DNA from: a virus
Lineage: Duplodnaviria; Caudoviricetes
Reading direction: 5' to 3' (one strand)
IMG/VR virus record: IMGVR_UViG_3300020045_001526
Coordinates: 1-59,105 of that record
Length of the DNA stretch: 59,105 nt
The position numbers and the translations under genes were made by a program. Numbering within the stretch: position 1 is the stretch's first letter; each line of letters opens with the position of its first letter. The notes beneath the pieces are model-generated. The model ran no database searches, was not told where the DNA came from, and saw nothing but the letters and a program-made list of their open reading frames with translations. This document shows, piece by piece, positions 28,077 through 58,682 of this stretch.

Positions 28077-28489
28077 ATCCCTCCTCCCAGTTTTAAACGT
28101 ATAGTGTGTAACACTGTTTCCCAAGTGGATACCAATATAAATCCTATAAACGCTATCAGAGCCCACGCCACGGAAGAAGTCGTGACCTTTTCCATCATTC
28201 TAGTCTTAGCTTCTGCTGATTTGATCGCAGCATCCACATATTTACCCCGGCGAATCATAGCATCCACTCCACCTAAATCCTTAAGCAGATTCTCCATCTC
28301 AGCTTCACGTTCCGTCTCGCGACGAGCCAATGGTATAATAGAGGCCGCTAGGCGATTTAAAGAGAAAAGTATCAAGCGATCCACTTCTCTGCGATCGCCC
28401 TTTAAATACATTTCTATCTCTTCGTCGGATAATATTCTGGGAGCAAATTCATCATTGAGTCTTCTCCCATAAGCGTGGTTAGGTTCCAT
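28073..28489 (-). CDS. Membrane protein (possible holin/antiholin)
   Basis: Single C-terminal TM helix, upstream of the endolysin. Confidence 0.5.
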   Translation of the reverse strand: MEPNHAYGRRLNDEFAPRILSDEEIEMYLKGDRREVDRLILFSLNRLAASIIPLARRETEREAEMENLLKDLGGVDAMIRRGKYVDAAIKSAEAKTRMMEKVTTSSVAWALIAFIGFILVSTWETVLHTIRLKLGGGI

Positions 28490-31226: not shown

Positions 31227-31227
31227 A

Positions 31228-33897
31228 TCAGCGTCCCGATTGAATTGCTAGAATTATAGCGCGTAACTGCTCCGGCGTTTCGATTTTGTTTGGTGATACG
31301 CTCCCACCTTGGGCGAAACCTTCAGGAGCCCAGACTTGTTTTTCTATCGCGTCTATTTCATCCTGAGTCATATGTTCAGGAATATCAATACCGGCATTTT
31401 TGATTCTATTCATCTCCGTAGTATTCCAGGCATCACTAGTTCTACGAAGTCCTGTATTCTGCAAGTCACCCACGTCGCTCCACTTACCGGACTTCACAAA
31501 GTCTTGCACGAAAGGCTGATACTCATCGGCGGGTTTGAGATTACCTTTACCTTTGATTTGGACGATACGATTCGGAGGAGTCTCTATTTCTCCATTCACA
31601 TCCCTACCTGGAGTTCCCGGATAAGGTTCAACTTCCACCGTCACATGAGGTTGTCCCTTCGCATCTCTCAGCGAGTAAATACGTGACTTACCTGAAGCCA
31701 CATCCTCGCAGTAGCCTCCCACACAGTGACCCATCGTGTCGCCTTCGTATTTGAGGGCGTCTTGGAGTTCCTTGTCCACCACGTATCTAGGATCTTTTAG
31801 TTCTGCAAAAGCAGCCTCTTCCGTAGCTTGCGGTAGCCCGAGTCTATCTCCATTTGGTGTTCTAAGTTGATATCCAGTTTTACCTAAATAAGTTGAATTA
31901 GGTTCTACCGTGTATCCTTCAGGTACCGTTGTATTTCCCGTGGGTTTAATCTCCACCCATTTCAGCCCTTTCGGATTGGGAGTCGTCTCGCTATGCGGAT
32001 ACTCTTTGTGCAACACGGTTGCCGCGTTGTTAGCCTTCGCCGCATCTGCTTCAGCCTTCAGAGCCGCTCGCCACTTGTTGATAGCATCCACGCGCTCGAC
32101 GGCTTGAGGCACGGACACTTTGTCCAGCCGGTCGGCAGGGAACTGCAAGTGTCTCGGTAGTCCCGATTCAGGATTGATCGCGTTGCTGAGTTCGTCGATG
32201 AGGTGACTGAAGCCGAGGCTTTCCTCCAGCCCTTTAGGTAGAGCGTAGAACGGCGTATTCTGGTCTACCTTTTCCATCCAGGGGTTTGCGGCTCGGTGTC
32301 CGCTCGGCGCATCGCGGACAACGTACTGGTCCAACCCTTGGTCGGTTAGGTCTTCCCAGTCCTGGGCGAGCTTGGTCTTACCCATACGACTGCCCGGACC
32401 GCCCAGCACTGGAGTGCGGACCATGCCGTCAGCGAGCCTTCGGGACAGTTCGCCGTCTGGGATCCAGTCCGGCGTAGTATGCAACACCCCTCGCTCCGCC
32501 AACGCTCGCAACGGATCTTCGGGAGTCGCCATTTCATTCTTGATGTACCGAGTGAGAGGTTTATCGATCCAGTTGTTGAGACGAGCGGCCTGTTGACTAT
32601 TAGCAAAGGCTTTGGGATTCGTCTGTTGATAGGCCTTAATCAGCTCTGGTTGTAATTCAAGAGTTTGCTTGATAGGTTCATGTTTCTTCAACCCCTTCAA
32701 AGCGTCTTCCACCGAACCGCTCAACCAGTTACCACCCTTGTTCTTAATAACGTTCAGCTTACCTTCTACCAGGTCTCCCGGATAGATCATTCCTTGATCA
32801 GCATATAGCGCCCGAGGTACATTGGATGAATAACCTTCTGTGTTTAATAGCTGGTCAAGATAGCTTTCCTGACTCATGCCTTTTCTAGGTATAGTGGGAG
32901 GACTAGCGTCACCGCTTAGCGATTCAAGGTAACGAGTTAATGTTCCGGTTTCAGGATTAGCGTGAGCTACGTGCATGTTCCTACCGTCCGGAGTGTCGGC
33001 TGCTGACAACGGGTTATACGCCCCAGAGGATTGGCGAGGATGGGTATGTACTTCATCGCTAGCCTTGAACAACCCAGATAAGGGTCTAGACACCGAAGTA
33101 TCGTCACCTATCTCTACCGGCCCCACCCAACCTCTAGGTGAAGATGCTGCAGCGCGCTCTACCGGCAACTCATGTCGAGCTATCTCTTCTAACGCAGACT
33201 GTACTGGATCAGACTTGGATATTACCCGGTCCACGTTGCGTAAAGTTCGGCGAGCGGTGGATGTTGGAGTGGCTAGATGTCCAAGACCCCCTATTGCCGA
33301 AGGCATCAAAATCGCCAGAGTATCCATCACTCCCTGATTACGCCCCTGTTTTAATTGAGGCACCAGAGAACCAGTCCCACCACCTACTATCTGTAATGGG
33401 GAATTACCATAGGACCATTCATTTACCTCCTCCGGTATTTTACCGGCCAGTAAGTCTCCCAGACCTTGTCCGCCGATCAGCGGAAGGATATCAGGAGCGT
33501 TATACTGGTTCAGGCTAGACTTACCCTTAGATAGTAAGTCCGCAATAGTACCAATCAAGTAATTTCTAGGGGACTCTTTTATACTACCTCCATCTGCATA
33601 ATTGCGAGATTTCAGTAGTCTGTTGAAGTCAGCACGCTGCTTGTCTTTCAACTGATTAATCGTTATACCCCGGGCCTTGGCTGCATCTTGAGCGGCGGTT
33701 GTACCGGACTTGTAATTAGACGAATCTTGTTTAGGGTTAGCGGACTTCCACCCATAATCCTCAGGCGTAGCGGCCCCAGCATCTATCAAAGCTTTCTGCT
33801 GTAGGACATTCAGAACGTCTGTCTTACCAATGAGCGAATTGATAGACCCACCTTCAGCATAGGATTGATTGAAGGCTTTAGCCCAAGGGTTTGTCAT
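31228..33897 (-). CDS. Large polyvalent protein (JAB-like plus PcfJ-like domains)
   Basis: E...HTHP..SAAD motif; EGDTMGHCVGGY..IYSLRD..PHVTVEV..QIKGKGN (PcfJ-like); three [YF]AxGG motifs. Confidence 0.65.
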   Translation of the reverse strand: MTNPWAKAFNQSYAEGGSINSLIGKTDVLNVLQQKALIDAGAATPEDYGWKSANPKQDSSNYKSGTTAAQDAAKARGITINQLKDKQRADFNRLLKSRNYADGGSIKESPRNYLIGTIADLLSKGKSSLNQYNAPDILPLIGGQGLGDLLAGKIPEEVNEWSYGNSPLQIVGGGTGSLVPQLKQGRNQGVMDTLAILMPSAIGGLGHLATPTSTARRTLRNVDRVISKSDPVQSALEEIARHELPVERAAASSPRGWVGPVEIGDDTSVSRPLSGLFKASDEVHTHPRQSSGAYNPLSAADTPDGRNMHVAHANPETGTLTRYLESLSGDASPPTIPRKGMSQESYLDQLLNTEGYSSNVPRALYADQGMIYPGDLVEGKLNVIKNKGGNWLSGSVEDALKGLKKHEPIKQTLELQPELIKAYQQTNPKAFANSQQAARLNNWIDKPLTRYIKNEMATPEDPLRALAERGVLHTTPDWIPDGELSRRLADGMVRTPVLGGPGSRMGKTKLAQDWEDLTDQGLDQYVVRDAPSGHRAANPWMEKVDQNTPFYALPKGLEESLGFSHLIDELSNAINPESGLPRHLQFPADRLDKVSVPQAVERVDAINKWRAALKAEADAAKANNAATVLHKEYPHSETTPNPKGLKWVEIKPTGNTTVPEGYTVEPNSTYLGKTGYQLRTPNGDRLGLPQATEEAAFAELKDPRYVVDKELQDALKYEGDTMGHCVGGYCEDVASGKSRIYSLRDAKGQPHVTVEVEPYPGTPGRDVNGEIETPPNRIVQIKGKGNLKPADEYQPFVQDFVKSGKWSDVGDLQNTGLRRTSDAWNTTEMNRIKNAGIDIPEHMTQDEIDAIEKQVWAPEGFAQGGSVSPNKIETPEQLRAIILAIQSGR

Positions 33898-43357: not shown

Positions 43358-43801
43358 ATGAACATCTTCATCCTAGACCGAGACCCGGTCCTCGCTGCTC
43401 AAATGCAATGTGACAAGCATGTTGTCAAGATGGTGTTGGAGTCAGCTCAGATAATGTCTACTATCAAAGGCGGCCCGTACAAACCCACCCATAAGAACCA
43501 CCCCTGTGTACTGTGGGCAACAAATGAAGACAATTATAACTGGTTGAGCGAACATGGATTAGCTTTGTGTAAAGAGTATACCTATCGCTATGGCAAACGG
43601 CACAAGTGCCAAGACGTCATAGAGAGCCTTGCTCCAGATTATAACTATGATGATGCTATTAACAACTTCGTTCAGTGTATGCCCGACGAGTACAAGTGCG
43701 AAGACCCGGTAGAGGCTTACCGTAACTATTATCGCGGCGCTAAGAGTGGTTTCGCCGTTTGGACTAAACGTGAAGTGCCTTTTTGGTGGAGTACGAAATG
43801 A
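43358..43801 (+). CDS. Pyrimidine-dimer DNA glycosylase-like (DenV/Pyr_excise) protein
   Basis: MNIF.LD.DP..AAQ..CDKHVVKM.LESAQ, HKNHPC..W and EY..RYGK.H motifs. Confidence 0.8.
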   Translation: MNIFILDRDPVLAAQMQCDKHVVKMVLESAQIMSTIKGGPYKPTHKNHPCVLWATNEDNYNWLSEHGLALCKEYTYRYGKRHKCQDVIESLAPDYNYDDAINNFVQCMPDEYKCEDPVEAYRNYYRGAKSGFAVWTKREVPFWWSTK

Positions 43802-47299: not shown

Positions 47300-48274
47300 A
47301 TGAAACAATCCATTTTCCCCAAGTTTTCCCTTAACCGGGATGACATTCATTGGGAAGACTACCTCAAGGCTTTGACTCCTTGGGAGAATCACCAAGGCAT
47401 TTGGTTCAAACGTGAAGACTTTTTCAGTCCGTTGGGTTACGGTGGTCCGAACGGCTCCAAGTGTCGTCAGCTTATTCACTTGATGAGTAGCACTCGAGCC
47501 GGCAAGACGCACGTACTCTCCGGAGCGAGCGTAAAGTCCCCCCAGCTTTCTATGAGCGCGATTATCGGTAAGCACTACGGACTACCGAGCCGCCTTATCG
47601 TGGGCGCTACGAAACCCGAGACGCTCATGAACCATCCCAACCCTCGTATTGCGGCTGGGTTTGGTGCTAGCTTCGAATACATCAACGTTGCCTACAATCC
47701 AGCGCTGCAGCGCAAGGTAGCCGAGCTGACCAAACCCTCCAGCCTGGTAGTGAAGTACGGTATTACTGTGGAGCACCAAACGTGCTCTGTTGAGGACTTA
47801 CTAGCCTTCCACGCAGTGGGTGCTAATCAAGTTCGAAATATTCCGGAGGAGGTTGAGGTTTTGATCGTTCCTGCCGGTTCGTGCAACTCCCTAGTAAGCG
47901 TGTTGATGGGTCTGAGACATGATCCAAAGAACGTAAGGTTGCTCTATACGCTAGGTATCGGTCCGGACAAGATGGAATGGGTACGTGAGCGTTGCAAAAA
48001 GCTAGGTTTTGATATTGATAACCTTCCGTTCAAGTGGAAGCATCACAGTCTTCACGACACTGGCTTCTCTACTTACCAAGATAACATGCCGGAGACCTTT
48101 GACGGTATTGAATTCCATGGCACTTACGAAGGAAAAATGATTCGCTACCTTAAACAAAACGGGTGGGTTTCCCAAGATGGCTATGTTGGGTTTTGGATCG
48201 TCGGGAGCGAGCCGGACCTGTCGGTCATCGAGCCGTTTTATACTCATCCGGAATACGTCACGGAGGCGGTATGA
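47300..48274 (+). CDS. PLP-dependent (fold type II) enzyme, putative DNA-base decarboxylase of the hypermodification pathway
   Basis: FKRED...GPNGSKCRQ (PLP lysine), SPQ, PAGSCNS and TYEGK motifs; gene context. Confidence 0.8.
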   Translation: MKQSIFPKFSLNRDDIHWEDYLKALTPWENHQGIWFKREDFFSPLGYGGPNGSKCRQLIHLMSSTRAGKTHVLSGASVKSPQLSMSAIIGKHYGLPSRLIVGATKPETLMNHPNPRIAAGFGASFEYINVAYNPALQRKVAELTKPSSLVVKYGITVEHQTCSVEDLLAFHAVGANQVRNIPEEVEVLIVPAGSCNSLVSVLMGLRHDPKNVRLLYTLGIGPDKMEWVRERCKKLGFDIDNLPFKWKHHSLHDTGFSTYQDNMPETFDGIEFHGTYEGKMIRYLKQNGWVSQDGYVGFWIVGSEPDLSVIEPFYTHPEYVTEAV

Positions 48275-48816
48275 GCTACTTGAATCACGATCAAATCGTC
48301 CAGGCTTGCGAAGCTGGAGCGATGGAAAACTGGTCTGCGGATTGTGTCAATGCCGCAAGTCTGGACCTTCGCTTGGGTGAAACTATTTTCATGGAAAATA
48401 CTGAACCTTGTCTTGATTATTTAGATTACCGTGCGCGTGATAAAATGGAAATGTGCAAATGTACCTTTAACAGCAAAGGTATTATTATTCAGCCCGGTCA
48501 GTTCTTCCTAGCTCACACAGTAGAGTATTGTAACTTCCCGGATAACCTCGCTGCTCTGTTCCGTATCAAGTCGAGTATGGGGCGTATTGGGCTGGAGCAC
48601 ATGGATGCCGGGTGGGTAGATCCAGGTTTCCATGGAGCATTGACGCTTGAGTTCAAGAACATGACTCAAAACCACGCTATCCTACTTCGGCCTGGAGACA
48701 AGATTGGACAGCTGATCTTCTTCAGGGGAGACTCGGTGAGCGAAGCTCAGAGCTATCGCACTAAGGGTAACTACAACGGACAATCGGGTGTCATGCAAGC
48801 GGGTTATAAGGAGTAA
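48271..48816 (+). CDS. dcd: dCTP deaminase
   Basis: ASLDLRLG, KSSMGRIGL, AGWVDPGFHG.LTLE, IGQL.F and Y.GQ motifs. Confidence 0.88.
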   Translation: MSYLNHDQIVQACEAGAMENWSADCVNAASLDLRLGETIFMENTEPCLDYLDYRARDKMEMCKCTFNSKGIIIQPGQFFLAHTVEYCNFPDNLAALFRIKSSMGRIGLEHMDAGWVDPGFHGALTLEFKNMTQNHAILLRPGDKIGQLIFFRGDSVSEAQSYRTKGNYNGQSGVMQAGYKE

Positions 48817-48820
48817 CAAC

Positions 48821-49150
48821 ATGACCGACCGAGAATTGCTAGAACTGGCGGCGAAGGCTGCTGGATATGATGTTGCATTCTGGCCTTCACGTAATGATGC
48901 GGGGTTTGAATGTGGATTTTTACATGCTGTGGATGGCGGCATATGGAACCCTCTAACCGACGACGGAGATGCGTTGAGGCTGGCGGTTAAGTTGCAGATG
49001 CAATACAGATTTATAACGACGTACTGCGAAGGTGTTGAGGCATACACTGGATATTCTCAAACGTGCTATGAGAAAATATTAGAAGATCGCGGTCAGTCTT
49101 TGCGCCGCTCCATCGTTCGTGCGGCTGCTGAAATTGGGAAGGGGATGTGA
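48821..49150 (+). CDS. Hypothetical protein
   Basis: MTDRELLELAAKAAG..WNPLTDDGDALRLAV..RAAAEIG family; RBS AAGGAG. Confidence 0.65.
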   Translation: MTDRELLELAAKAAGYDVAFWPSRNDAGFECGFLHAVDGGIWNPLTDDGDALRLAVKLQMQYRFITTYCEGVEAYTGYSQTCYEKILEDRGQSLRRSIVRAAAEIGKGM

Positions 49151-50133
49151 TGGATTATCGACTTAAAGAAAACCGAGAAGCCTACTTTACTCAGCTTTAC
49201 CAGATGAACCTAACCTACGGTATCATGCCGGGATGCGTTTATCTCTACATGCCGGAGTTGGCTAAGAAATATCACTGGGACATGGAACAGAAGCTCTGGT
49301 TCGCGTTCATCAACGGCAACACGCAAAACCCGATTACTTCGATGAGGATCTTCCGCCGGTTCCCTGAGCCTCCGCAAAACAAAGTGGAGCTGCAGGACCT
49401 GACGGATTGGTTCAATGAAGAGTGGGAACGGCTAAGTTTTGATACTGATCGTCGCTACCAGAAGAAAGACTTCCCGGCCGCAGTACAGTCTTACTGTAAA
49501 GCGATGTATGAATTTGGTTCCCAAGAAGTGATGTTGACTGGAACCTTCACGGAACTGTGGGACCGAGTTACTAAGAGCTTCACCAGCTTTGGACGCCTAG
49601 CAACCTTTTCGTACTTGGAATACGTTAAAATAATGGGGGCTGGAGCAGATTGCGACAACCTGTTGTTTGAAGACAAATCCGGTAGCAAGTCTCACCGCAA
49701 TGGGATGTTGTTCCTAATGGGTCACGACGACCTGGTTTGGGACAAGCGTGCTGATAACGGTTTTGACGGTAATTATAACTGGAAGAAGATGGTACCCTGG
49801 CTCAACATGGAAGCGGATAAGTATCTGGCGATGTGTGAGATTACTCACAAAGATGCCGGGTTCTTCACGCTGGAGAGCCAACTGTGTCAGTTCAAGAACG
49901 GTTTCTTCCGTCGCCGCTATCCGGGCGTCTACGCGGATATGGCTTGGGATCGGATCAAGTGGCATGAAGACCGTGATTTGAATGATGTCACCAAGGTGTT
50001 CCGCCAGATACGCGAAGACCACTTACCCGTTTGGCTGCGAGAAGAGTGTGAATCGCCTGTAGTGGATCGTAAAGTCAAAGCTTCACAATTCATGGATACG
50101 GGCGTTCCGTTCCGTGCTGAACATTTTCTTTAG
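49147..50133 (+). CDS. Amino acid:DNA transferase (aGPT-Pplase2 family)
   Basis: DYRL.ENR, TDRRYQK, HhH-like FGRLATFSYLE, SHRNG and ESQLCQFK..RRYPG.Y motifs; context with kinase and TS homologue. Confidence 0.8.
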   Translation: MMDYRLKENREAYFTQLYQMNLTYGIMPGCVYLYMPELAKKYHWDMEQKLWFAFINGNTQNPITSMRIFRRFPEPPQNKVELQDLTDWFNEEWERLSFDTDRRYQKKDFPAAVQSYCKAMYEFGSQEVMLTGTFTELWDRVTKSFTSFGRLATFSYLEYVKIMGAGADCDNLLFEDKSGSKSHRNGMLFLMGHDDLVWDKRADNGFDGNYNWKKMVPWLNMEADKYLAMCEITHKDAGFFTLESQLCQFKNGFFRRRYPGVYADMAWDRIKWHEDRDLNDVTKVFRQIREDHLPVWLREECESPVVDRKVKASQFMDTGVPFRAEHFL

Positions 50134-50299
50134 GAGGATCAAATGGATGATTCGTATTATGGTAAAGGCCGGTGGTCTGGTGGGAGATATTCAATTTATT
50201 CGCATATAAATGATTATGTTCCCATTGGTCCTACCGTAGCAATTTTAGCGGTTATCGCTATTTTAGTTACCGTGATTAAATGTTCTTAGGAGAATACAT

Positions 50300-50878
50300 A
50301 TGAGTAAAAAGATTGTTTCTTTGCGCGGCACGTCCGGTTCAGGTAAATCCACGGTAGCGTTTACCTTCTTGAAGAATTATCCCAATAGCGAGTTGATTGG
50401 AAGCGATAACAAAATAAAAGGATATCGCATTGACGTTCCTGAACTCAAGAATCCAATTTACCTGTTGGGTAAGTATACTACTGTCTGCGGAGGATGTGAC
50501 CAAATTAATCGACAACAAGAGGCCGCTGATCGCGCCGTTCATTATCACCAAGACGGTCACGTGTTGATGGAAGGTCTTCTTGCCTCGGCGGCAGGACCAG
50601 CCGGTGCCGTTACTATGACGATCCAAGCCACCGGAGAGGCCGTTTTCGCCATCCTTACGACACCCGTTGAGCTTTGCATTGAGCGCGTCAAAGCCCGGCG
50701 TCTAGCGCGGGGAGACGAGCGCCCTCTCAACGAGAAAAACACTCGCGATAAGTGGACGCAAACTCGTAGCACGGCCAGCGCCCTGTTCAAACTCGGCTAC
50801 GACGTCCGCCCTATCAATCACGAAAACGCGTTTGAAGACGTACTCGCCATCTTCCAGGAAGCTGAATCAAATGACTAA
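50300..50878 (+). CDS. 5hmdU DNA kinase (P-loop, 5-HMUDK)
   Basis: LRGTSGSGKST, LGKY...CGGCD, EGLL and C.ERV.ARR motifs. Confidence 0.82.
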   Translation: MSKKIVSLRGTSGSGKSTVAFTFLKNYPNSELIGSDNKIKGYRIDVPELKNPIYLLGKYTTVCGGCDQINRQQEAADRAVHYHQDGHVLMEGLLASAAGPAGAVTMTIQATGEAVFAILTTPVELCIERVKARRLARGDERPLNEKNTRDKWTQTRSTASALFKLGYDVRPINHENAFEDVLAIFQEAESND

Positions 50879-51773
50879 TCCATTTGAGCGTCCGCTAGCC
50901 TACGCTCCTAAAATGGAAGACATCCTATATTGGGTGTGGGAGCGCGAGGCTATCCGAGTGTCCAAAGGTTTGAACTTACCGAAGCCTTGGACCGAAGATC
51001 CTATCCTTCATAAGTATCGTTTCTGCAACGTCCGTCGCCGGGACGATCGAATGAGTCAATGGATGATGTCTAACATGTTCCAGCACGTCGCCCATGGTGA
51101 AGAGGACATGTGGTTTATTGCCGCGATAGCTCGATATATCAACTGGCCACCTACGCTGACCGAGCTATTGGTAGAAGGGATGATTCCCGGGTTTGCAGAA
51201 GAGTTTGATCCCCACGGTTTTGTAGAGGTGCTTGACCGAGTAAAATCTACCGAGGTAAAGACCTACGGAAGCGCCTATATGCTCTACCCAGGCCGAGAAA
51301 CTGGCTCTAACAAAGCTGAGACGATCGCTTATCGCTTCCTGCTGCCGTTGGTAGAGGGTCGTAAAGAGATACGAGAGGCGGTGGCTTCTAAGAGTGTCGA
51401 GGCGGTGGTAACCGAGCTTAGTAGGTATTACGGGTGGAACACTTTCTTAGCAGGGCAGGTGGCGGCAGATCTTTCATATTATCCTGAAGAGTTGGGAGAA
51501 GCGGAAGACCTATACGACTGGGCGCCGATGGGTCCAGGGTCTACTCGAGGACTCAATCGCCTACTTGGTCGTAAGATCAACGCGCATTGGCATCAAACCG
51601 AGTTTAATACGGAATTGAAGAAAGTGTGGACCGATATCGCCCATCAGCTCGATATAGATGAATTCACCTTACACGACGCCCAAAACTGCATGTGCGAACT
51701 TGATAAAATGTGGAGGGTTTTGGCAGGCGAAGGTGCTCCCCGTTCTTTGTACAAATCTGAAACCGCGTATTAG
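50871..51773 (+). CDS. aGPT-Pplase1 / 5hmdU-kinase-associated helical-domain protein
   Basis: ERE.IR....PWTEDPIL..YRFCNV.R.DDR, F.A.QV.AD, GPGS.RGL and CELDK motifs. Confidence 0.8.
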   Translation: MTNPFERPLAYAPKMEDILYWVWEREAIRVSKGLNLPKPWTEDPILHKYRFCNVRRRDDRMSQWMMSNMFQHVAHGEEDMWFIAAIARYINWPPTLTELLVEGMIPGFAEEFDPHGFVEVLDRVKSTEVKTYGSAYMLYPGRETGSNKAETIAYRFLLPLVEGRKEIREAVASKSVEAVVTELSRYYGWNTFLAGQVAADLSYYPEELGEAEDLYDWAPMGPGSTRGLNRLLGRKINAHWHQTEFNTELKKVWTDIAHQLDIDEFTLHDAQNCMCELDKMWRVLAGEGAPRSLYKSETAY

Positions 51774-51951
51774 GAGAATAGTATGTCTCTAACTATATTG
51801 ATTATAACTTACTTAATCGGTATTCCTATTGTTACTTTATCTCTCATGGATTACGTAACTGTTAAGGAATTGATATGTAGTTTTATAGCGGCACTATTTT
51901 GGCCTATACTATTACCTGTTAATTTTATCCGAAAACTCATAAGGAGATAAT

Positions 51952-52938
51952 ATGGAACTAACTGTCCGCAATGCTAATGATCTATTCAGTGAAGGACTTT
52001 GGAGGCTGAAGGGGTGTGGGGTAAAATCCGACTCAAGAAACGGAGCGGTTATACGTATAGAAGAGCCGGTTATTATTACCGTAGAAAGGCCTCAGGAGCG
52101 AGTGCTTTTCTTTGAAGGTAGAGATTGCAACCCTATATTCCATATTATGGAATCGATTTGGATTTTATCGGGCAGGAGGGATGTGTCTTTTCTTAAACTA
52201 TTTAACCGTAACATTGATCAGTTCTCCGATGATGGTTATGTATTCAATGCGGCCTACGGCTTCAGAATGCGTAATCATTTCGGACGAGACCAGCTGGTAG
52301 AAGTAATTAACATACTGAAGTCTGACCCATGTAGCCGGCAAGCTGTTATACAGCTTTGGGACTCCGAAGACTTAACAAAGAAAACCCTCGACAAATGTTG
52401 CAATACTCAATTGGTATTTGATATAGTATCAAACCGAGTTAATCTTACAGTTTTTAACAGAAGTAATGATTTCTGGTGGGGGAATGCAGGTAGTAATATA
52501 GTTCACTTCAGCTTTTTGCTTGAATTTGTAGCGGCGGCACTAAGACGACCCGTCGGTAAAATGAGAACCATGATAAACAACTTACATATTTATGACAAGT
52601 CCGTATATGACGCGGCTAAACATCTAGATGCTCCTCCAGATCCATACGAATATGACGCTTATCAACATGGTGTTACCCCCGCGTCAATGCTCACAGATGG
52701 AGCTTCTTGGTCCACTTGGCTTCGCGACGCGGAGGATTATTGCGTTGCGCCGTTTGAGCCTTTGAAATCGGTACATCCCTTCTTCAACGAAGTGGCTTAC
52801 CCTATGGCGATGGTGTCCAAGACGCGTAAAGAGAAGTCCGGAACCGGAGAAGCCTGGGCGATACGTATTCAAGCTGAAGATTGGAAGATAGCCACTCTCG
52901 ACTGGATTCATCGTCGAGAGGAAGCAAAAGTCAAATAG
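51952..52938 (+). CDS. Thymidylate synthase homologue, probable dUMP hydroxymethylase
   Basis: SRNG, AYG.R, SRQAV..LWD, DKCCN, RSND.WWG..GSN (Asn at the dU-specificity position) and NLHIY motifs. Confidence 0.85.
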   Translation: MELTVRNANDLFSEGLWRLKGCGVKSDSRNGAVIRIEEPVIITVERPQERVLFFEGRDCNPIFHIMESIWILSGRRDVSFLKLFNRNIDQFSDDGYVFNAAYGFRMRNHFGRDQLVEVINILKSDPCSRQAVIQLWDSEDLTKKTLDKCCNTQLVFDIVSNRVNLTVFNRSNDFWWGNAGSNIVHFSFLLEFVAAALRRPVGKMRTMINNLHIYDKSVYDAAKHLDAPPDPYEYDAYQHGVTPASMLTDGASWSTWLRDAEDYCVAPFEPLKSVHPFFNEVAYPMAMVSKTRKEKSGTGEAWAIRIQAEDWKIATLDWIHRREEAKVK

Positions 52939-52939
52939 C

Positions 52940-52975
52940 TTTACTTTTAAGAAACCCCCAGCTATAATGGGGGCA
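52940..52975 (+). promoter_or_regulatory. Promoter TTTACT-N17-TATAAT-GGGGGCA
   Basis: Third plus-strand copy; CCCCCA in the spacer is inverted relative to TGGGGG. Confidence 0.8.
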
Positions 52976-53032
52976 CTTGCTAGAGCAAGAGAAGATAAAT
53001 CAGCATCCTCTAACCTATAACAGGAGATAGAC

Positions 53033-53803
53033 ATGAACAAATATGAATTTACCAACGAGACGAAAGTACAATTCGGAGTAACCTTTCGCAGGATTCGAGC
53101 ACTTATTGAGATCGCTGGTGTTGTTTCAGCTGGTGAAGTTGGTGGTTGGGTTGAAGCCGAAAAGTGCCTTTCACAAACTGGCAACGCTTGGGTCTATGGC
53201 AACGCTCTGGTCTATGGCAACGCTCTGGTCTCTGGCAACGCTCAAGTCTATGATGACGCTCTGGTCTATGGCAACGCTCTGATCTCTGGCAACGCTCTGG
53301 TCTCTGGCAACGCTCAAGTCTATGATGACGCTCTGGTCTATGGCAACGCTCTGATCTCTGGCAACGCTCTGGTCTCTGGCAACGCTCAAGTCTATGGCGA
53401 CGCTCTGGTCTATGGCAACGCTTGGGTCTATGGTAACGCTCGGGTCTCTGGCGACGCTCTGGTCTATGGCAACGCTCGGGTCTATGGTGACGCTCTGGTC
53501 TATGGCAACGCTTGGGTCTATGGTAACGCTCGGGTCTATGGTGACGCTCTGGTCTATGGCAACGCTCATATATTGTCGCAAGAATCAATTTGCACTTTTT
53601 CCGGCTTCGGCTCTGAATATAGGACGACTACGGCCTTCACGGATTCCAAACTCGGTATTCGTATTGTCTGTGGGTGTTTCACAGGGACCCTTAAGCAATT
53701 CCGAACGAAAGTTATTGAAACATACGGGGAAAACAGCAAGAATGGAAAGCTCTACCTAGGAATGGCTAATATGATTGAATATCGCTTGGAAGAAGAGAAA
53801 TGA
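53033..53803 (+). CDS. Hexapeptide-repeat (left-handed beta-helix) protein
   Basis: RIRAL...GG.VE.EK.LSQ.GNAW start, about 21 G[ND]AxV[YS] repeats, RTTT.F..CGCF end. Confidence 0.8.
   Translation: MNKYEFTNETKVQFGVTFRRIRALIEIAGVVSAGEVGGWVEAEKCLSQTGNAWVYGNALVYGNALVSGNAQVYDDALVYGNALISGNALVSGNAQVYDDALVYGNALISGNALVSGNAQVYGDALVYGNAWVYGNARVSGDALVYGNARVYGDALVYGNAWVYGNARVYGDALVYGNAHILSQESICTFSGFGSEYRTTTAFTDSKLGIRIVCGCFTGTLKQFRTKVIETYGENSKNGKLYLGMANMIEYRLEEEK
53180..53568 (+). repeat. 18-bp tandem repeat array (GGCAACGCTCTGGTCTAT-like)
   Basis: Visible directly; includes a 72-bp higher-order duplication. Confidence 0.9.
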
Positions 53804-54300
53804 ATAGCCGATTGAATTTCATCATTTCAGGTAGCGAAGTCACTCGCTATCACACTGTTCGCACCCTGACCGAAGAGACAGTAGGTCACCATTCGCACAT
53901 GGTCGCTATGTTGTGTGTTGTACTCTGGGAAGAGGGATATCCCAGTAGTGCGTTGTTGATTGGCGCTTTGGTGCATGACCTGGCAGAGCATCAAACTGGT
54001 GACATTCCGTCTCCCGCGAAACGCGAGTACGGTATTGGCGAACAGGTGTCAGAACTGGAAGAAAGACTACTGAGAAGTGCGTGTTTGGACGTAGAACTGT
54101 CCAAAAAGGAAGCTCGTACCCTGAAAATGGCGGATCTAGCCCAAGGTGCGCTATTTTGCGTGCGGGAACTTCAGTTAGGTAACCAGCTCGCTTCTGTGGT
54201 ATACGATCGCTACCTGTCTTACGCCGAAAGTATGGTGCTAGTAGGTCGTGAGCGAGAGCTGTTCAACACTATTCACCAAATGAGGAAGGAAGTGAAATGA
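53800..54300 (+). CDS. HD-domain phosphohydrolase (YfbR-like 5'-deoxynucleotidase)
   Basis: RYHT...ETVGHHS, LVHDLAE..TGDIPSP.K and KMAD motifs. Confidence 0.85.
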   Translation: MNSRLNFIISGSEVTRYHTVRTLTEETVGHHSHMVAMLCVVLWEEGYPSSALLIGALVHDLAEHQTGDIPSPAKREYGIGEQVSELEERLLRSACLDVELSKKEARTLKMADLAQGALFCVRELQLGNQLASVVYDRYLSYAESMVLVGRERELFNTIHQMRKEVK

Positions 54301-54794
54301 AAAAAGAACTGATCGAACGGATTGCGATGGAAGTTTTGGACAGCTTCAAGTCGGAAGCTAACGACCCGAATCAAACCGACCGCGAGTCCGTAACTGAATT
54401 CGCCGCTCGCTTCCTCGCACGCATCGACGCCGAGCGGGGGAAGGAGGCGGTTGCGATACGCACATTTGATGGAGAAGGCGGTTACGACTATCGCGGAACG
54501 GATGGCGACGACACATATATCGCCGACTTCGATGCCAGAAATCCGAATCATGTCGGATGGGCCGAACCGCTCTTTCTCTCCCAGACGATCCCGGAAGGCA
54601 TGGCGCTGGTGCGAGTTTACCAACTGGAACATGCCGGCCGGCAAGCAAAGATCGCCGCTGATTGTATCGTCGGATTCTCGAAAGCTAAGCCGGGAGGGAT
54701 GTGTGGCTGGCTTGATGACGCCTGCACTGCCGCCGATATTGCAGCTTCCGACATACGCGCCATGCTCGCCGCCGCCCAAGGAGAACGCAAATGA
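54297..54794 (+). CDS. Hypothetical protein, paralogue of 4416..4805
   Basis: Shared blocks with 4416..4805. Confidence 0.7.
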   Translation: MKKELIERIAMEVLDSFKSEANDPNQTDRESVTEFAARFLARIDAERGKEAVAIRTFDGEGGYDYRGTDGDDTYIADFDARNPNHVGWAEPLFLSQTIPEGMALVRVYQLEHAGRQAKIAADCIVGFSKAKPGGMCGWLDDACTAADIAASDIRAMLAAAQGERK

Positions 54795-54982
54795 GCTGCC
54801 AATGTCGTTTGTGTGGGAAAGGGGCGCAGGAGATTGGCGGATACCTAACCCGCGTCAATGAAAAAGGTGTTGAGGGGATTTGGGAGTGTCGCCCTAGCTG
54901 TGATGCCGATCAATCTTTTGAGCAAAACCTACTGGAAGCGCTTGAAACTCCGGAAAGCCAAGGAGAACGCAATGCTGACTGA
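54791..54982 (+). CDS. Small Cys-rich protein between CCAAGGAGAACGCAA repeats
   Basis: CRLC..C..C; ends QGERNAD. Confidence 0.6.
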   Translation: MSCQCRLCGKGAQEIGGYLTRVNEKGVEGIWECRPSCDADQSFEQNLLEALETPESQGERNAD

Positions 54983-56066
54983 AAGTGATGTTTGGAAATC
55001 TAACGGAATTATGGCTGCTAATTGCGAAGCTGAACTTGAAATGTCTGTGCTGATGAAGCTGGTTCGCGCCATCGAGGCCGAGGTCGCAGCGCGGGCGGGG
55101 CAGGAGCCGTTCGCGGTAACCACTGGATACTACGGTGGTCGCGCAGTTATAGAGCCTATAAATAGAGCAATGGTGATCCCTGTTAATTTGGCGCTTTACA
55201 CCACCCCGGTCGCCTGCCCGAAGTGCGGAGATGCCGAGCAAATGTACTACCGAGATATGACTGAGCGCACGGAAGAATGCGTGAAGCTACAAGCCAAGGT
55301 CGCCGAGCTTGAAGCGAAATTGCTTGATCGAGAAGGGATGGTATGTGGCGATTGCGACGATACCGGCTGGCTTGAGAACCGAGAGGAAGGCCGATACCCA
55401 TGTACCTGCATGACCGAGGCCGAGCCTTACCAGTTGCTGCAAGCCAAGGTCGCAGAGGCTGCCCGAGACAACGGCCTTCTGCGCCTGAGGGTAGAGCAGC
55501 GGCGCGAGCAACTTACCAGCGCTGAATCTGCTTTGAGCGAGCGGGATGCCAGGGTCGAAGAGCAGAGCGAGGAGATTGAGCGGCTGACCAATAGGCTGAA
55601 TACTGACTCTCAGGAATTCACAATTATTTGCTCGAAGGAAACGGAAACGCTACTACGCGCTACCATCACGCAGCAGGCCGAGCGCATCGCAGAGCTTGAA
55701 CAAGCGTACAAAGATAAGGATACCGCAGCGACACAGCTAGTTACCGCTATGCGAGACATGGCAACGAAGGTCGCCGAGCTTAATGAAGAGCGTCAAGAAT
55801 TCCTCTCAACGGTCAATAAAATCGGCATGGCGGTTGGTTATGACTTCAGTGGCGGGTTGGCTGACCTTGTTGTCACGCGGCTGACCAATCAATCTTCGCT
55901 GATCGAGAAGTGCGAGAAGGCGCTAAAGGCAATCATTGCGGCATGGGAAAGCTTACCAGAGGGTAAACATGATGCCAGACGTGTTGGGGAGTGGCTGGCC
56001 GGGCCAATGATGCGCGCTATTCGTCAGTGTCGTGAATCTGTATCCGATCACAAAGAAAGGATTTAG
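54972..56066 (+). CDS. Coiled-coil hypothetical protein, paralogue of 4950..5471
   Basis: 64-bp identity block with 5266-5329; repeated LQAKVAE; CxxC motifs. Confidence 0.7.
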   Translation: MLTESDVWKSNGIMAANCEAELEMSVLMKLVRAIEAEVAARAGQEPFAVTTGYYGGRAVIEPINRAMVIPVNLALYTTPVACPKCGDAEQMYYRDMTERTEECVKLQAKVAELEAKLLDREGMVCGDCDDTGWLENREEGRYPCTCMTEAEPYQLLQAKVAEAARDNGLLRLRVEQRREQLTSAESALSERDARVEEQSEEIERLTNRLNTDSQEFTIICSKETETLLRATITQQAERIAELEQAYKDKDTAATQLVTAMRDMATKVAELNEERQEFLSTVNKIGMAVGYDFSGGLADLVVTRLTNQSSLIEKCEKALKAIIAAWESLPEGKHDARRVGEWLAGPMMRAIRQCRESVSDHKERI

Positions 56067-56067
56067 T

Positions 56068-56517
56068 ATGGCCGCAAATGATAAACAGGTAAGCGGTAGT
56101 CATTATAAACCGGCTTTAAAAGGCGAGGTTCAGCATTGGGACTATTGCACCATGACGGATGTACCTAACCTTGAATACGCCGCCTCGAAGTATGTACAGA
56201 GGTGGCGGGACAAGAACGGTTTGGTAGATTTGAACAAGGCTATTCATTACCTTGAAAAACGTATTGAATTGACTTGCGGATATCCAGGTCGTTGGTGTGG
56301 GGCAACTCCAAACAGCTTACTATTTAATAGATATGTTGAAGCTAATAATATTCCTCAGAAAGAATCGCTTATTATTCATCGAATTATGCATTGGGTACAT
56401 AGTGTAGAACTTCAAATTGCTATCGAGGAAATTACTAGTTTGATTCAAAAAGAAGAATACAGAATTATTGAGGAAGAAGGTGGCCCGACCTCAGGTTATG
56501 TTAATCAGGATAGATAA
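56068..56517 (+). CDS. DUF3310 (T7 gp1.7-like) protein, putative nucleotide kinase
   Basis: QVSGSHYK, QHWD and KY..RW.DKNG..DL.KA.HYL motifs. Confidence 0.75.
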   Translation: MAANDKQVSGSHYKPALKGEVQHWDYCTMTDVPNLEYAASKYVQRWRDKNGLVDLNKAIHYLEKRIELTCGYPGRWCGATPNSLLFNRYVEANNIPQKESLIIHRIMHWVHSVELQIAIEEITSLIQKEEYRIIEEEGGPTSGYVNQDR

Positions 56518-56518
56518 C

Positions 56519-56773
56519 ATGTGTATAATTCATAAGATGGCTCAAGGTTTTGGCGGGATGGGCGACGGATACGTTTGTGTTAAATGCGGATATGATACGT
56601 ATCATAGACCATTAAACGCAATAATTATGCGGAAAAGGGATGATCTCATGCACTTCTATACCTACCCCTACATTAGAAAGTTTAAGGATACTATTACATG
56701 GGAAACCGATACAAATAACTGGACTCATCACTATAGTAAAGAAGGAAACCTAGTGGAGCGGGAGCATGTCTAA
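56519..56773 (+). CDS. Hypothetical protein
   Basis: C.H...CVKCG; fills the gap before the polymerase. Confidence 0.45.
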   Translation: MCIIHKMAQGFGGMGDGYVCVKCGYDTYHRPLNAIIMRKRDDLMHFYTYPYIRKFKDTITWETDTNNWTHHYSKEGNLVEREHV

Positions 56774-58682
56774 AACCCTAGTCTTTGATATAGAAGTTTT
56801 TTCGAACGTGCTACTGTTCTGCGGCAGAGTGTTGGAGAATCGTAACATTATTGCTATCTGGCACGACGAGCCGAACGCATTAGCTAAGATTCGCTCAGTA
56901 TTCGAGTCCGGATGTACGCTGGTGTCGTTCAACGGTATTAAATTTGACACGCCGGTGGCTTCCGCATTACTTGCCGGTAAGTCAATTGAAACGGTGAAAA
57001 TGATCGCCAATTCGATTATCGAGCACCAGATGCAACCGTGGGAAGCTCAGCGTCGGTTCGGCATTCCGGACTTAAAGTTTGATCATATTGACTTGATAGA
57101 AGTAGCGCCAAGTTTTGTAGGGCTAAAAGCGTATGGTTCACGTATGCACATGCGCTGGCTGAAAGACCTTCCGTTTGAGCATGACGCCATTATCACCGAC
57201 GAGCAACGCGCCGACGTTCAGGAGTATTGTATCAATGACTTGGACACTACCGAAGAGCTGTATAATAGACTAGAGTTTCAACTCAACTTGCGTCGCCAAA
57301 TGGGAGCCGAGTATGATTGCGACTTCCGTAGTAAGTCTGATACCCAAATGGCGGAGACCGCATTTATCAAGCGTTTGAACCTTCCTCGGGGTAAGAAGAA
57401 AGTTCCTAAGTCTATCGTCTATACCGCGCCGGAGTACATTAGTTTTGACGATCAGAACTTGCAGGACACCTTCGACCGAGTAAAAGAAACAGTGTTCCCT
57501 ATGAATCAGGCTACAGGCCACGTAGAGCTGCCGGACTTCTTAGGTAAGGAACAGATCAAGCTAAATAAAGGTTCGTATCAGCTAGGCGTGGGTGGTATTC
57601 ACTCTACCCACGACAAAAAAGTGTGTCACGTAGCGACTAAAGGTTATATAGTAACCGATATTGACGCGGCTTCTTTTTACCCGTCTATATGGGTTTTGTG
57701 GGGTGAGACGTCGGGAGACTATGATGCTAGACTGACCGAAGAGTACAGCAAGATTTATTATCGTCGATTGAAGGCTAAAGCTGATGGAGATAAAGACGTA
57801 GCCGAAGGATTGAAAGTACCCATCAATGGCAGCTTCGGTAAGCTGTTGTCTAAGTATTCACCTATGTATGGTCCAACTCTGGGATTGTTCATAACGCTTA
57901 CGGGGCAATTTACCCTTTTGATGCTCATAGAGCGTCTAGAGAAGGTGGGGGCAGTGGCGCTCTCGGCCAATACCGACGGTATCGCTATGGGTTACCCGGT
58001 CGAGCTAAAAGAAACCGTAGGGCGCGTCGTCTCGGACTTCGAGAAGCTCACTAAGTTTGACTTCGAGTATACGCCATATCGGGTATTGGCAATGAAGGAC
58101 GTGAACAATTACATTGCCGTGAAGACTAACCGTAAAGTCAAGGCTAAGGGAATATATGGTCCGTTAGAATTGAAGAAGAATCCCACTGCCGGAGTGTGCG
58201 CGTTGGCGGTTTGTGAATGGCTAGCTCATGGAACTCCGTTCATGGATACTATTAAAACTGCTCCTTTCACAGATTTCATCTCAGCGAGGTCAGTTACTGG
58301 GGGAGCGGTTCAAGGGGGTAAAGAATTGTTTCATCGGGTAAGTGATTCAAATTCAGACCGATATAAAGATGCGGTGTGCGGTATAGAAGGAGGAGAATAT
58401 TTAGGTAGAGTTGTTCGTTGGTATCACTCAACTGATTCAAATGTGGAACCGATACGCTATAAAACCAATGGCAATAAAGTCCCCACTACTGATGGAGCTA
58501 AGGCATGTATGGTGATTGAAGACAAGATAAATCACCCTACTGATTTAAATTATGCCTGGTACTACTTAGAAGCGGTTAAAATTGCGGCTAACATCGGTTG
58601 TCAAGACTTCCTGACTCCAGAAGAATTAGTGATGATAACTCCGATATCTAAGACGCGTAAAACTAAAAAGGTGAAAACATGA
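56766..58682 (+). CDS. Family B DNA polymerase with 3'-5' exonuclease
   Basis: Exonuclease FDIE, FNG..FD, YCIND; polymerase DAASFYPS, K..INGSFGK, NTDG. Confidence 0.9.
   Translation: MSKTLVFDIEVFSNVLLFCGRVLENRNIIAIWHDEPNALAKIRSVFESGCTLVSFNGIKFDTPVASALLAGKSIETVKMIANSIIEHQMQPWEAQRRFGIPDLKFDHIDLIEVAPSFVGLKAYGSRMHMRWLKDLPFEHDAIITDEQRADVQEYCINDLDTTEELYNRLEFQLNLRRQMGAEYDCDFRSKSDTQMAETAFIKRLNLPRGKKKVPKSIVYTAPEYISFDDQNLQDTFDRVKETVFPMNQATGHVELPDFLGKEQIKLNKGSYQLGVGGIHSTHDKKVCHVATKGYIVTDIDAASFYPSIWVLWGETSGDYDARLTEEYSKIYYRRLKAKADGDKDVAEGLKVPINGSFGKLLSKYSPMYGPTLGLFITLTGQFTLLMLIERLEKVGAVALSANTDGIAMGYPVELKETVGRVVSDFEKLTKFDFEYTPYRVLAMKDVNNYIAVKTNRKVKAKGIYGPLELKKNPTAGVCALAVCEWLAHGTPFMDTIKTAPFTDFISARSVTGGAVQGGKELFHRVSDSNSDRYKDAVCGIEGGEYLGRVVRWYHSTDSNVEPIRYKTNGNKVPTTDGAKACMVIEDKINHPTDLNYAWYYLEAVKIAANIGCQDFLTPEELVMITPISKTRKTKKVKT

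Follow-up and report, generated by a model that had tools for sequence, protein, structure and literature searches.

The closest described systems to the one reported here are the thymine hypermodification pathways of three phages. Salmonella phage ViI uses the 5-hydroxymethyluridine DNA kinases (5-HMUDKs) gp67 and gp243, the amino acid:DNA transferase (AADT) gp247 and the pyridoxal 5'-phosphate (PLP) enzyme gp226, for which decarboxylation of the serine adduct O-SerT on DNA has been demonstrated (Lee 2021, PMC8989533). Pseudomonas phage M6 needs a radical S-adenosylmethionine (SAM) isomerase because PLP chemistry requires a free primary amine: its PLP enzyme gp52 is inert on N-alpha-GlyT until the radical-SAM enzyme has isomerised this adduct, whereas ViI, which attaches serine through the oxygen, needs no isomerase (Lee 2021, PMC8989533). 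The pathway of M6 and YuA leads to 5-(2-aminoethyl)-2'-deoxyuridine (5-NedU) and comprises gp51 (AADT), gp52, gp53 (radical SAM), gp54 (kinase), gp55, gp58 (thymidylate synthase (TS) homologue) and gp59 (HD protein), and that of Pseudomonas phage PaMx11 leads to 5-acetylaminomethyl-2'-deoxyuridine (5-AcNmdU) by way of gp46, the FAD lyase gp47, the GNAT protein gp48 and the kinase gp49. To our knowledge, few AADTs have an established donor, and the donors found so far are glycine, serine, putrescine and 1,3-diaminopropane. Here we analysed the IMG/VR phage record IMGVR_UViG_3300020045_001526, whose 59,105 bp are referred to below as the window, and in particular a gene cluster at positions 47,300 to 56,517 that combines an AADT with a PLP enzyme.

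In our view, this cluster rather probably serves the post-replicative hypermodification of thymine, with the ViI logic of kinase, AADT and PLP enzyme set on a nucleotide-metabolism backbone of the M6/PaMx11 type; all chemical steps in this reading are predicted from the genes. A preliminary description of this DNA had listed a PLP enzyme, a dCTP deaminase (dcd), an AADT, a P-loop kinase, an aGPT-Pplase1 protein, a TS homologue with an RSND..N motif, an HD hydrolase and a DUF3310 protein, all on one strand, and the open reading frames (ORFs) together with profile matches bear out this list, with all these genes on the plus strand. The gene set and the homologies also support its view of a thymidine hypermodification cluster that is based on 5-hydroxymethyl-2'-deoxyuridine (5hmdU) and includes a PLP enzyme. 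Judged by homology, the cluster is a mosaic of an M6/PaMx11-type backbone, a ViI-type PLP enzyme and an AADT from an uncharacterised branch. The genes for the kinase, HMUDK_hel (the current name of aGPT-Pplase1), the TS homologue, the HD hydrolase and the DUF3310-like protein have M6 and PaMx11 homologues in the same order.

The PLP enzyme (47300-48274, plus strand; phrog_3650, 286 bits) is by its homology clearly a gp226-like protein, and decarboxylation of a DNA-bound amino acid is the activity that this homology predicts. In tblastn comparisons it is 35.2% identical to ViI gp226 over 378 columns (E 5e-63), and no match to M6 gp52 was found. The blocks that it has in common with gp226 are LSLNRD.IHWEDYL, WFKRED, NGSK.RQ, PAGSCNS, GIGP, YEGK and FWIVGS. 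K54, within the motif NGSKCRQL, is the predicted Schiff-base lysine; it aligns with the predicted PLP lysines K92 of ViI and K36 of M6, and all 30 relatives in the alignment have it. The enzyme is matched by 349 phage records, and among the rows listed and the organism tallies almost all are ViI-like phages that infect enterobacteria or Vibrio (34-37.5% identity); further matches come from Glutamicibacter phage Montesquieu and Pseudanabaena phage Pam4. An AlphaFold2 (AF2) model (predicted local distance difference test, pLDDT, 91.2) points to a fold-type-II, tryptophan synthase beta-like fold, with 1j0a (E 1.4e-11, template modelling (TM) score 0.65) and a D-cysteine desulfhydrase as top Foldseek matches (TM 0.61-0.65). 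The Phyre2 template reported for gp226 was likewise 1j0a (Lee 2021, PMC8989533). Solved structures that match the PLP enzyme or the AADT came from fold comparison alone; sequence searches, for which the PLP enzyme and an AADT profile served as queries, returned nothing meaningful.

In a rival reading, the PLP enzyme would have another role: it would convert a free metabolite into the donor ahead of the transfer, or would catalyse beta-elimination or beta-replacement as most fold-type-II enzymes do. No decarboxylase is among its closest solved folds, which are those of ACC deaminase homologues, D-cysteine desulfhydrases and cystathionine beta-synthases, the identity to gp226 is just 35%, and the gene is dispensable in three complete relatives discussed below. 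We nevertheless regard such a role as quite improbable: gp226 belongs to the same fold type, on the 1j0a template, and is a proven decarboxylase acting on DNA (Lee 2021, PMC8989533), and natural fusions argue that the PLP enzyme and the AADT act together on the DNA polymer. One of these fusions (P0265) consists of a PLP domain, 41% identical to that of the window (E 3e-78), followed by an AADT (42%); in another (P0269), an HMUD2 kinase precedes the PLP domain (38%, E 8e-68), and the AADT follows. Fusions of such kind in metaviromes have been mentioned before (Lee 2021, PMC8989533). Among proteins with AADTs of the same group (P0249, P0250, P0251, P0261, P0265, P0269 and P0270), the fusion partners are Tet_JBP dioxygenase domains, P-loop kinases, a PLP enzyme, or a kinase plus a PLP enzyme, and one protein bears an intein with an HNH endonuclease.

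The AADT gene (Pplase2 family) starts at 49147 or 49150 and ends at 50133 on the plus strand, and its product matches PF18724 with 68.5 bits against a cut-off of 26.2. The catalytic cysteine and a nearby glutamate, which are essential in AADTs (Lee 2021, PMC8989533), are kept as C247 and E243, and the segment TLESQLCQFK aligns with EVETVLCKWK of M6 and NFETSGACWLK of ViI. In PaMx11 gp46, the catalytic cysteine is reported to be Cys247. Further residues of interest in the window AADT are E243-S244 at the metal site and D101, S155, Q248, Y258 and D264 in the pocket. The AF2 model (pLDDT 81.1) indicates the fold of PaMx11 gp46 and YuA Pplase2: the top Foldseek matches are the gp46 structures 8z2m and 8z2n (probability 1.00, TM 0.50-0.58, with weak E values of 6.5e-3 to 3.2e-2), identity to gp46 in the structural alignment is 12%, and all other PDB matches have TM scores of at most 0.20. 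The nearest characterised relative is ViI gp247 (30% identity, E 2e-26), and the top matches among cultured phages are AADTs of the Mycobacterium phage Prince/JAMaL type (35-36%, E about 1e-51). The AADT of Prince is 35% identical (E 1e-46 to 4e-54) and that of Montesquieu 35-37%. Transfer of an amine or amino acid onto 5-phosphomethyl-2'-deoxyuridine (5-PmdU) in DNA would be the predicted activity.

The preliminary description had tentatively placed this AADT, on the basis of PGCVY and LWFAFINGNTQNP, in the glycine-using M6/YuA clade. Both stretches are indeed present in the protein, but they do not align with M6 residues, and the placement itself did not hold. In tblastn searches, M6 gp51 and PaMx11 gp46 found no significant match in the window (best E 2.6-3.0). 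In a quick IQ-TREE phylogeny of 75 representatives of 270-460 residues, the window AADT and six reference proteins, with the representatives drawn from the best 150 of 236 library matches at E <=0.001 and fused or fragmentary ones left out, the M6, PaMx11 and PhiW-14 gp109 enzymes form a distant clade (support 100) beyond a long branch. A glycine-using enzyme of the M6/YuA type, whose N-linked glycine derivative would be processed without an isomerase, would fit the genome size, the gene order and the backbone genes for the kinase, HMUDK_hel, the TS homologue, the HD hydrolase and the DUF3310-like protein, which all resemble those of M6 and PaMx11. Yet the AADT itself lacks sequence similarity to these enzymes and lies in another part of the tree, both lysines that bind the glycine carboxylate are absent (S155 and Q248 in their place), and N-alpha-GlyT, with which M6 gp52 did not react, has a secondary amine that offers PLP chemistry no starting point (Lee 2021, PMC8989533). 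We therefore find it very hard to credit a glycine donor of this type.

With the glycine type set aside, we return to the ViI-like logic that we favour, in which the AADT most likely attaches its amino acid through the side chain, because the cluster pairs a gp226-type enzyme with no isomerase and PLP chemistry needs a free primary amine. The absence of further tailoring genes, which the preliminary description had reported, was confirmed for the families looked for. Six-frame profile searches of the whole window record with Radical_SAM (PF04055), DAO (PF01266) and Acetyltransf_1/GNAT (PF00583) gave no match, and the same three hidden Markov model (HMM) searches detected M6 gp53 (E 1.1e-6), PaMx11 gp47 (E 3e-10) and PaMx11 gp48 (E 2.6e-16) in their own genomes as positive controls. 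Searches by tblastn with M6 gp53 and PaMx11 gp47 and gp48 returned noise or nothing from the window, and none of the radical-SAM, DAO or GNAT families was found among the Pfam matches of 60 translated window ORFs. The window is therefore without a radical-SAM, DAO-type flavoenzyme or GNAT gene. The same holds among its relatives within the scope of our searches: the three M6 and PaMx11 proteins had no tblastn match in 81 related loci, and whole-record searches of five complete relatives yielded no radical-SAM gene.

The donor is the point at which the comparison with ViI becomes less direct, and several observations weigh against simply extending the ViI pathway to this cluster. In the tree, the window AADT forms its own seven-row clade (support 100), part of a group of 50 rows (support 93) that includes Prince and Montesquieu, outside the seven-row clade of ViI gp247 (support 100), which itself belongs to a 26-row group (support 87). 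The proposed tree comparison with ViI gp247 and M6 gp51 thus grouped the window enzyme with neither; by sequence it is nearer to ViI than to M6 and inside neither characterised clade. Its pocket differs as well. According to a recent report, YuA Pplase2 has been solved with DNA and glycine, with a pocket formed by D24, E96, K159, K248, Y257 and D262 in which K159 and K248 salt-bridge the glycine carboxylate (Li 2026, PMC13458397). We mapped these positions by an L-INS-i alignment of 82 rows, which is secure near the cysteine and less certain around position 159. Position 159 is K in the glycine type and in PhiW-14, N in the ViI clade (N189) and S in the window (S155), as in the rest of its clade, Prince and Montesquieu; position 248, directly after the cysteine, is K in the glycine type, G in PhiW-14, W in the ViI clade (W288) and Q in the window (Q248), with mostly T in the rest of its clade, Prince and Montesquieu. 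The N/W pair is that of gp247 and its two clade members displayed. At position 96 the ViI group and the window group alike have D, and Y257 is kept throughout. S155/Q248 therefore equals no characterised enzyme, be it of the glycine (K/K), putrescine (K/G) or ViI (N/W) type, and since S155/Q248 stands against N189/W288 at donor-setting positions, a serine donor cannot simply be assumed.

Variation within the group points in the same direction. The motif that follows the cysteine in the 120 closest homologues is T..H in 70 and Q..G, the window type, in 32, with A..G (7), T..G (6), Q..H (3), S..S (1) and T..S (1) making up the remainder. Tailoring, too, appears to be dispensable in this lineage. 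Three relatives with a CheckV completeness of 100% (L026, L053 and L054; records G001-G003) have the AADT, the kinase, HMUDK_hel and the TS homologue, and whole-record searches found the PLP gene nowhere. The PLP-less genomes are nested in the AADT tree among PLP-bearing relatives, so that the PLP step was lost at least twice and the pathway can end with the AADT product; PLP tailoring is thus an optional step in the window lineage. Two profile matches, finally, remain under their cut-offs, namely Pfam PALP on the PLP enzyme (22.5 bits against 35) and HMUDK_HMUD1 (PF18748) on the kinase (18.8 bits against 27).

Two further observations concern the pocket region. In window positions 49885-49935, which encode AADT residues 243-258, ESNLCTFKNHFFGRRYPG is found in 66 of the 120 homologues (P0001-P0120) and ESQ[LC]CQFKNGFFRRRYPG, the form of the window, in 20; the first variable position after the AADT cysteine is the one reported to help to set donor choice (Li 2026, PMC13458397). 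Relatives with a Q..G pocket and relatives with a T..H pocket both include some that have the PLP gene and some that lack it, so that no link between pocket variant and PLP gene was seen.

What the product is depends on how these points are weighed. By analogy with the only precedent, our leading guess is 5-(2-aminoethoxy)methyl-2'-deoxyuridine (5-NeOmdU) made from serine, to which we give a little less than an even chance; the reported masses are 345 u for O-SerT and 301 u for 5-NeOmdU (Lee 2021, PMC8989533). The ViI-type branch of the preliminary description thus stands as far as the PLP enzyme is ViI-like and the AADT nearer to gp247 than to M6, and is weakened by an AADT that lies outside the ViI clade and has other pocket residues. 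The same logic could operate with another side-chain-linked donor, such as threonine, homoserine or cysteine, or a diamino acid (ornithine, lysine or 2,4-diaminobutyrate) joined via its distal amine, and would then lead to an undescribed base or to a known polyamine-thymine by a new route. In favour of such a donor are the uncharacterised clade of the AADT, the pocket pair that resembles none of the glycine, putrescine or ViI types, the pocket variants within the window's own clade, and a conserved GS[KR]SHRNG loop in place of the GSESNRNG loop of ViI. The structural report moreover describes two pocket substitutions as sufficient for a donor switch and many clusters of the Pplase2 sequence-similarity network as still uncharacterised (Li 2026, PMC13458397). 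On the other hand, the sole characterised pair of an AADT and a PLP enzyme uses serine, the PLP enzyme retains long blocks common to gp226, and the residue after the cysteine varies (W, T, Q or C) among PLP-linked AADTs and so may not set the donor in this group; no particular alternative donor has positive evidence. An undescribed analogue from another donor, as the distinct clade and pocket would allow, therefore seems to us possible but on the unlikely side. The idea of a new base, which the preliminary description had raised on the strength of a glycine-type AADT, thus has a different reason, namely the uncharacterised clade and its pocket.

Returning to the favoured ViI-like reading, the pathway could proceed in five steps. 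The dCTP deaminase would supply deoxyuridine nucleotides from which the TS homologue would form 5hmdUMP, with the HD hydrolase depleting thymidine nucleotides. Cellular kinases, or possibly the DUF3310-like protein, would then raise 5hmdUMP to 5hmdUTP, which the phage DNA polymerase would incorporate. In the DNA, the P-loop kinase would phosphorylate 5hmdU to 5-PmdU, and the AADT, through Cys247, would replace the phosphate by an amino acid joined via its side chain, leaving the alpha-amine free. Decarboxylation of the adduct by the gp226-like PLP enzyme, through K54, would finally leave a primary amine at the end of the side chain.

The kinase (50300-50878, plus strand; AAA_33, 27.7 bits) has the P-loop GTSGSGKST and is 32% identical to PaMx11 gp49 (E 6e-23) and 28% to M6 gp54 (E 5e-12); from these homologies it is probably a 5hmdU DNA kinase. 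HMUDK_hel (start at 50832 or 50871, here taken as 50871, to 51773, plus strand; PF18723, 140.6 bits) is 32% identical to M6 gp55 (E 1e-35), a protein that is dispensable in vitro (Lee 2021, PMC8989533). The TS homologue (51952-52938, plus strand; PF00303, 78.6 bits; phrog_5131, 305 bits) is 39% identical to PaMx11 gp51 (E 6e-74) and 38% to M6 gp58 (E 3e-65) and contains RSNDFWWGNAGSN at residue 170, which provides the RSND..N motif, as well as CCN. Canonical ThyA equivalog models all score far under their cut-offs on this protein (best 64.7 against 327). It is probably a dUMP hydroxymethylase, an assignment for which sequence by itself cannot separate hydroxymethylation from methylation. Directly before its gene lies a 55-residue hydrophobic ORF (51783-51950, plus strand), and M6 gp57, of 37 codons, is found at the same place. 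The YfbR-like HD-domain hydrolase (53800-54300, plus strand; PF12917, 43.8 bits) is a homologue of M6 gp59 (E 2e-10) with an H..HD motif, and as a 5'-deoxynucleotidase it may clear thymidine nucleotides from the pool.

The DUF3310-like protein (56032-56517, plus strand; phrog_5839, 92 bits) matches PF11753 only weakly (17.5 bits against a cut-off of 24) and is homologous by tblastn to M6 gp61 (E 2.5e-13) and PaMx11 gp53 (E 6.6e-15). It also matches part of the PHROG families annotated as 'nucleotide kinase' (phrog_236, E 2e-10), and its gene adjoins that of the DNA polymerase in M6, PaMx11 and the window lineage. It could be the missing 5hmdUMP kinase, a suggestion that we regard as a lead only. 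The DNA polymerase gene (56766-58682, plus strand; phrog_1252, 516 bits; no Pfam match) is kept downstream of the cluster in most related loci, at the position of M6 gp62; no similarity between the two polymerases was found by tblastn.

The dCTP deaminase gene (48271-48816, plus strand) matches PF22769 with 121.8 bits and TIGR02274 with 127.9 bits against a cut-off of 92.8, and its likely start, the ATG at 48271, overlaps the stop codon of the PLP gene. In the gene-neighbourhood comparison, which covered 81 fetched related loci searched by tblastn with the window proteins, this gene was detected in just three (L011, L012 and L015). These are the three closest relatives, and only in them and in the window do dcd and the small ORF that follows it stand between the PLP and AADT genes, which adjoin in most other PLP-bearing loci. 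The small ORF (48821-49150, plus strand; phrog_5086, E 2e-25) has NinX (TM 0.73) and Phage_ABA_S (TM 0.66) as structural neighbours in the atlas, and its NinX-like, ABA-sandwich-like product is probably not part of the modification pathway. The block kept across the 81 loci comprises the AADT, the kinase, HMUDK_hel, the TS homologue, in part the HD hydrolase, the DUF3310-like protein, the DNA polymerase and a Pam3-gp32-like protein. A PLP gene is visible within the fetched stretch in 50 of the loci and absent over at least 8 kb upstream in five, the other 26 being too short to tell.

Besides the NinX-like ORF, the genes between those listed in the preliminary description are two ORFs without a family match (54297-54794 and 54858-56066), which precede the DUF3310 gene, and a YdcK-type beta-solenoid (53033-53803, plus strand; PF18836, 119.5 bits) between the TS and HD genes. 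The solenoid has a conserved N-terminal domain, a variable count of GNAxVYGNAxV repeats and a conserved C-terminal CGCF domain, and with at least 7888 homologues it belongs to a huge mobile phage family of variable repeat number. A stretch of 227 nt within its gene is 83.7% identical to Streptococcus phage Javan64. NCBIfam searches matched it to acyltransferases with a left-handed beta-helix, of the LpxD, NeuD and PaaY types, at E values of 4.6e-5 to 1e-2 that are all far under the cut-offs. As a tblastn query it matched three of the 81 loci: L015, in the syntenic place between the TS and HD genes, L011, as a short match just upstream of the HD gene, and L040, a more distant locus, elsewhere. 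In view of the sub-threshold matches, the mobile family and the occurrence in three of 81 loci, we rejected the solenoid, with low confidence, as a hidden acetyltransferase or pathway member; that it is an N-acyltransferase acting on the modified base is doubtful. A search of the literature on YdcK solenoids in phages found nothing useful.

The window genome is complete, as the preliminary description had supposed. The record has a GC content of 47.8% and direct terminal repeats, the first and last 121 bases being identical, and its CheckV completeness is 100%. A Pfam scan of its other genes identified an AAA_24 ATPase, a DUF669 protein, SU10-adaptor-like virion proteins, a terminase, a primase-polymerase, a helicase, a DenV-like pyrimidine-dimer glycosylase and a GIY-YIG protein. 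This phage, for which modified thymines are predicted, has the glycosylase gene (43358-43801, plus strand; PF03013, E 3.4e-10) a few kb before the start of the cluster. On the minus strand, two adjacent very large ORFs (915 and 889 residues; 28479-33897) were seen, the first without a Pfam family and the second with only a PcfJ-like segment (E 1.6e-7).

No close cultured relative exists among the phage records that we compared. When the 9.2-kb cluster was compared by megablast with 50,697 phage records, the sole match was the 227 nt of Javan64 within the YdcK-repeat gene, and the top cultured match of the terminase, in Paracoccus phage vB_PkoS_Pkon1, has 52% identity. Among uncultured phages in viromes, the window lineage is very abundant: the protein collection holds 914 matches to the AADT and 580 to the PLP enzyme at E <=1e-5, many of them on contigs of 54-64 kb, and IMG/VR contains at least 558 stretches related to the window. 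Our literature search, which left figures and supplements outside its scope, found nothing on this lineage or on an AADT of its clade, and the IMG/VR metavirome clusters in Fig. 2 of Lee 2021 (PMC8989533) may include a relative. A paper on an SP15-type DNA polymerase (PMC13697223) deals with a different group of phages and has no bearing on the window.

If the donor is not serine, this very abundant uncultured lineage would carry an undescribed thymine derivative, or a polyamine-thymine that arises when a diamino acid is joined via its side chain and then decarboxylated on DNA. In that case the PLP-less relatives would keep the undecarboxylated amino-acid base as their final modification, and the Q..G and T..H variants would mark different donors. 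The complete genomes without a PLP gene, as natural 'knock-outs', together with the pocket variants provide a comparative set for the evolution of donor choice and tailoring. Either outcome, 5-NeOmdU outside the Ackermannviridae or a new base, would be useful for the chemistry of restriction-resistant DNA and for the reading of viromes, because hypermodified DNA can be under-represented in sequencing.

Overall, the window combines features that the known systems hold separately. It shares the three enzyme classes with ViI, and both do without a step of the radical-SAM, flavin or acetyltransferase kind; the PLP enzymes are clear homologues with the same lysine, and gp247 is the nearest characterised AADT. 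It differs from ViI in a kinase that is M6/PaMx11-like rather than gp243-like (best E 0.034), in a PLP enzyme about 100 residues shorter than gp226, and in genes that form a cluster in a genome of 59 kb whose virion module is of the SU10-adaptor type, whereas those of ViI are scattered in a 157-kb Ackermannviridae genome. The M6/YuA genome is likewise about 59 kb in size, with the order AADT, kinase, HMUDK_hel, small ORF, TS, HD, DUF3310-like protein and DNA polymerase and a backbone identity of 28-38%. Unlike M6, the window is without the radical-SAM isomerase, has an AADT that lacks the glycine-binding lysines, and encodes a dCTP deaminase instead of the dCMP deaminase; BLAST detected no similarity of its AADT to gp51, of its PLP enzyme to gp52 or of its polymerase to gp62. 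PaMx11 provides the top backbone matches (kinase 32%, TS homologue 39%) and, with the gp46 structure 8z2m, the only real PDB fold match of the AADT; the window differs by the lack of the FAD lyase and the GNAT protein, and by an AADT model only 12% identical to gp46.

Montesquieu, an actinophage with a genome of 47.6 kb that is known from annotation alone, encodes an AADT (35-37%) of the same 50-row group and, next to it, a PLP enzyme (35%), together with a P-loop kinase, an aGPT-Pplase1 protein and a TS/hydroxymethylase; no radical-SAM gene was seen in the 18.8 kb of its genome that were inspected. The pocket motif of its AADT is LCTYKSWH, and its annotation does not provide a functional anchor. 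Mycobacterium phages of the Prince/JAMaL type, which encode a ParB-like protein, a thymidine hydroxylase, an AADT and a kinase, have an AADT of the same group as the window, but their 5hmdU is made on DNA by a T-dioxygenase instead of a TS homologue, and no PLP enzyme stands beside the AADT. The alpha-dapT pathway of Acinetobacter phage SH-Ab 15599 follows the same logic of kinase and Pplase2 but uses a free diamine donor and no PLP step, with a Pplase2 in the PhiW-14 cluster, far from that of the window (Li 2026, PMC13458397). Set beside all these systems, what is newly described here is an AADT with a new pocket signature that is paired with a gp226-type PLP enzyme in a complete and compact genome.

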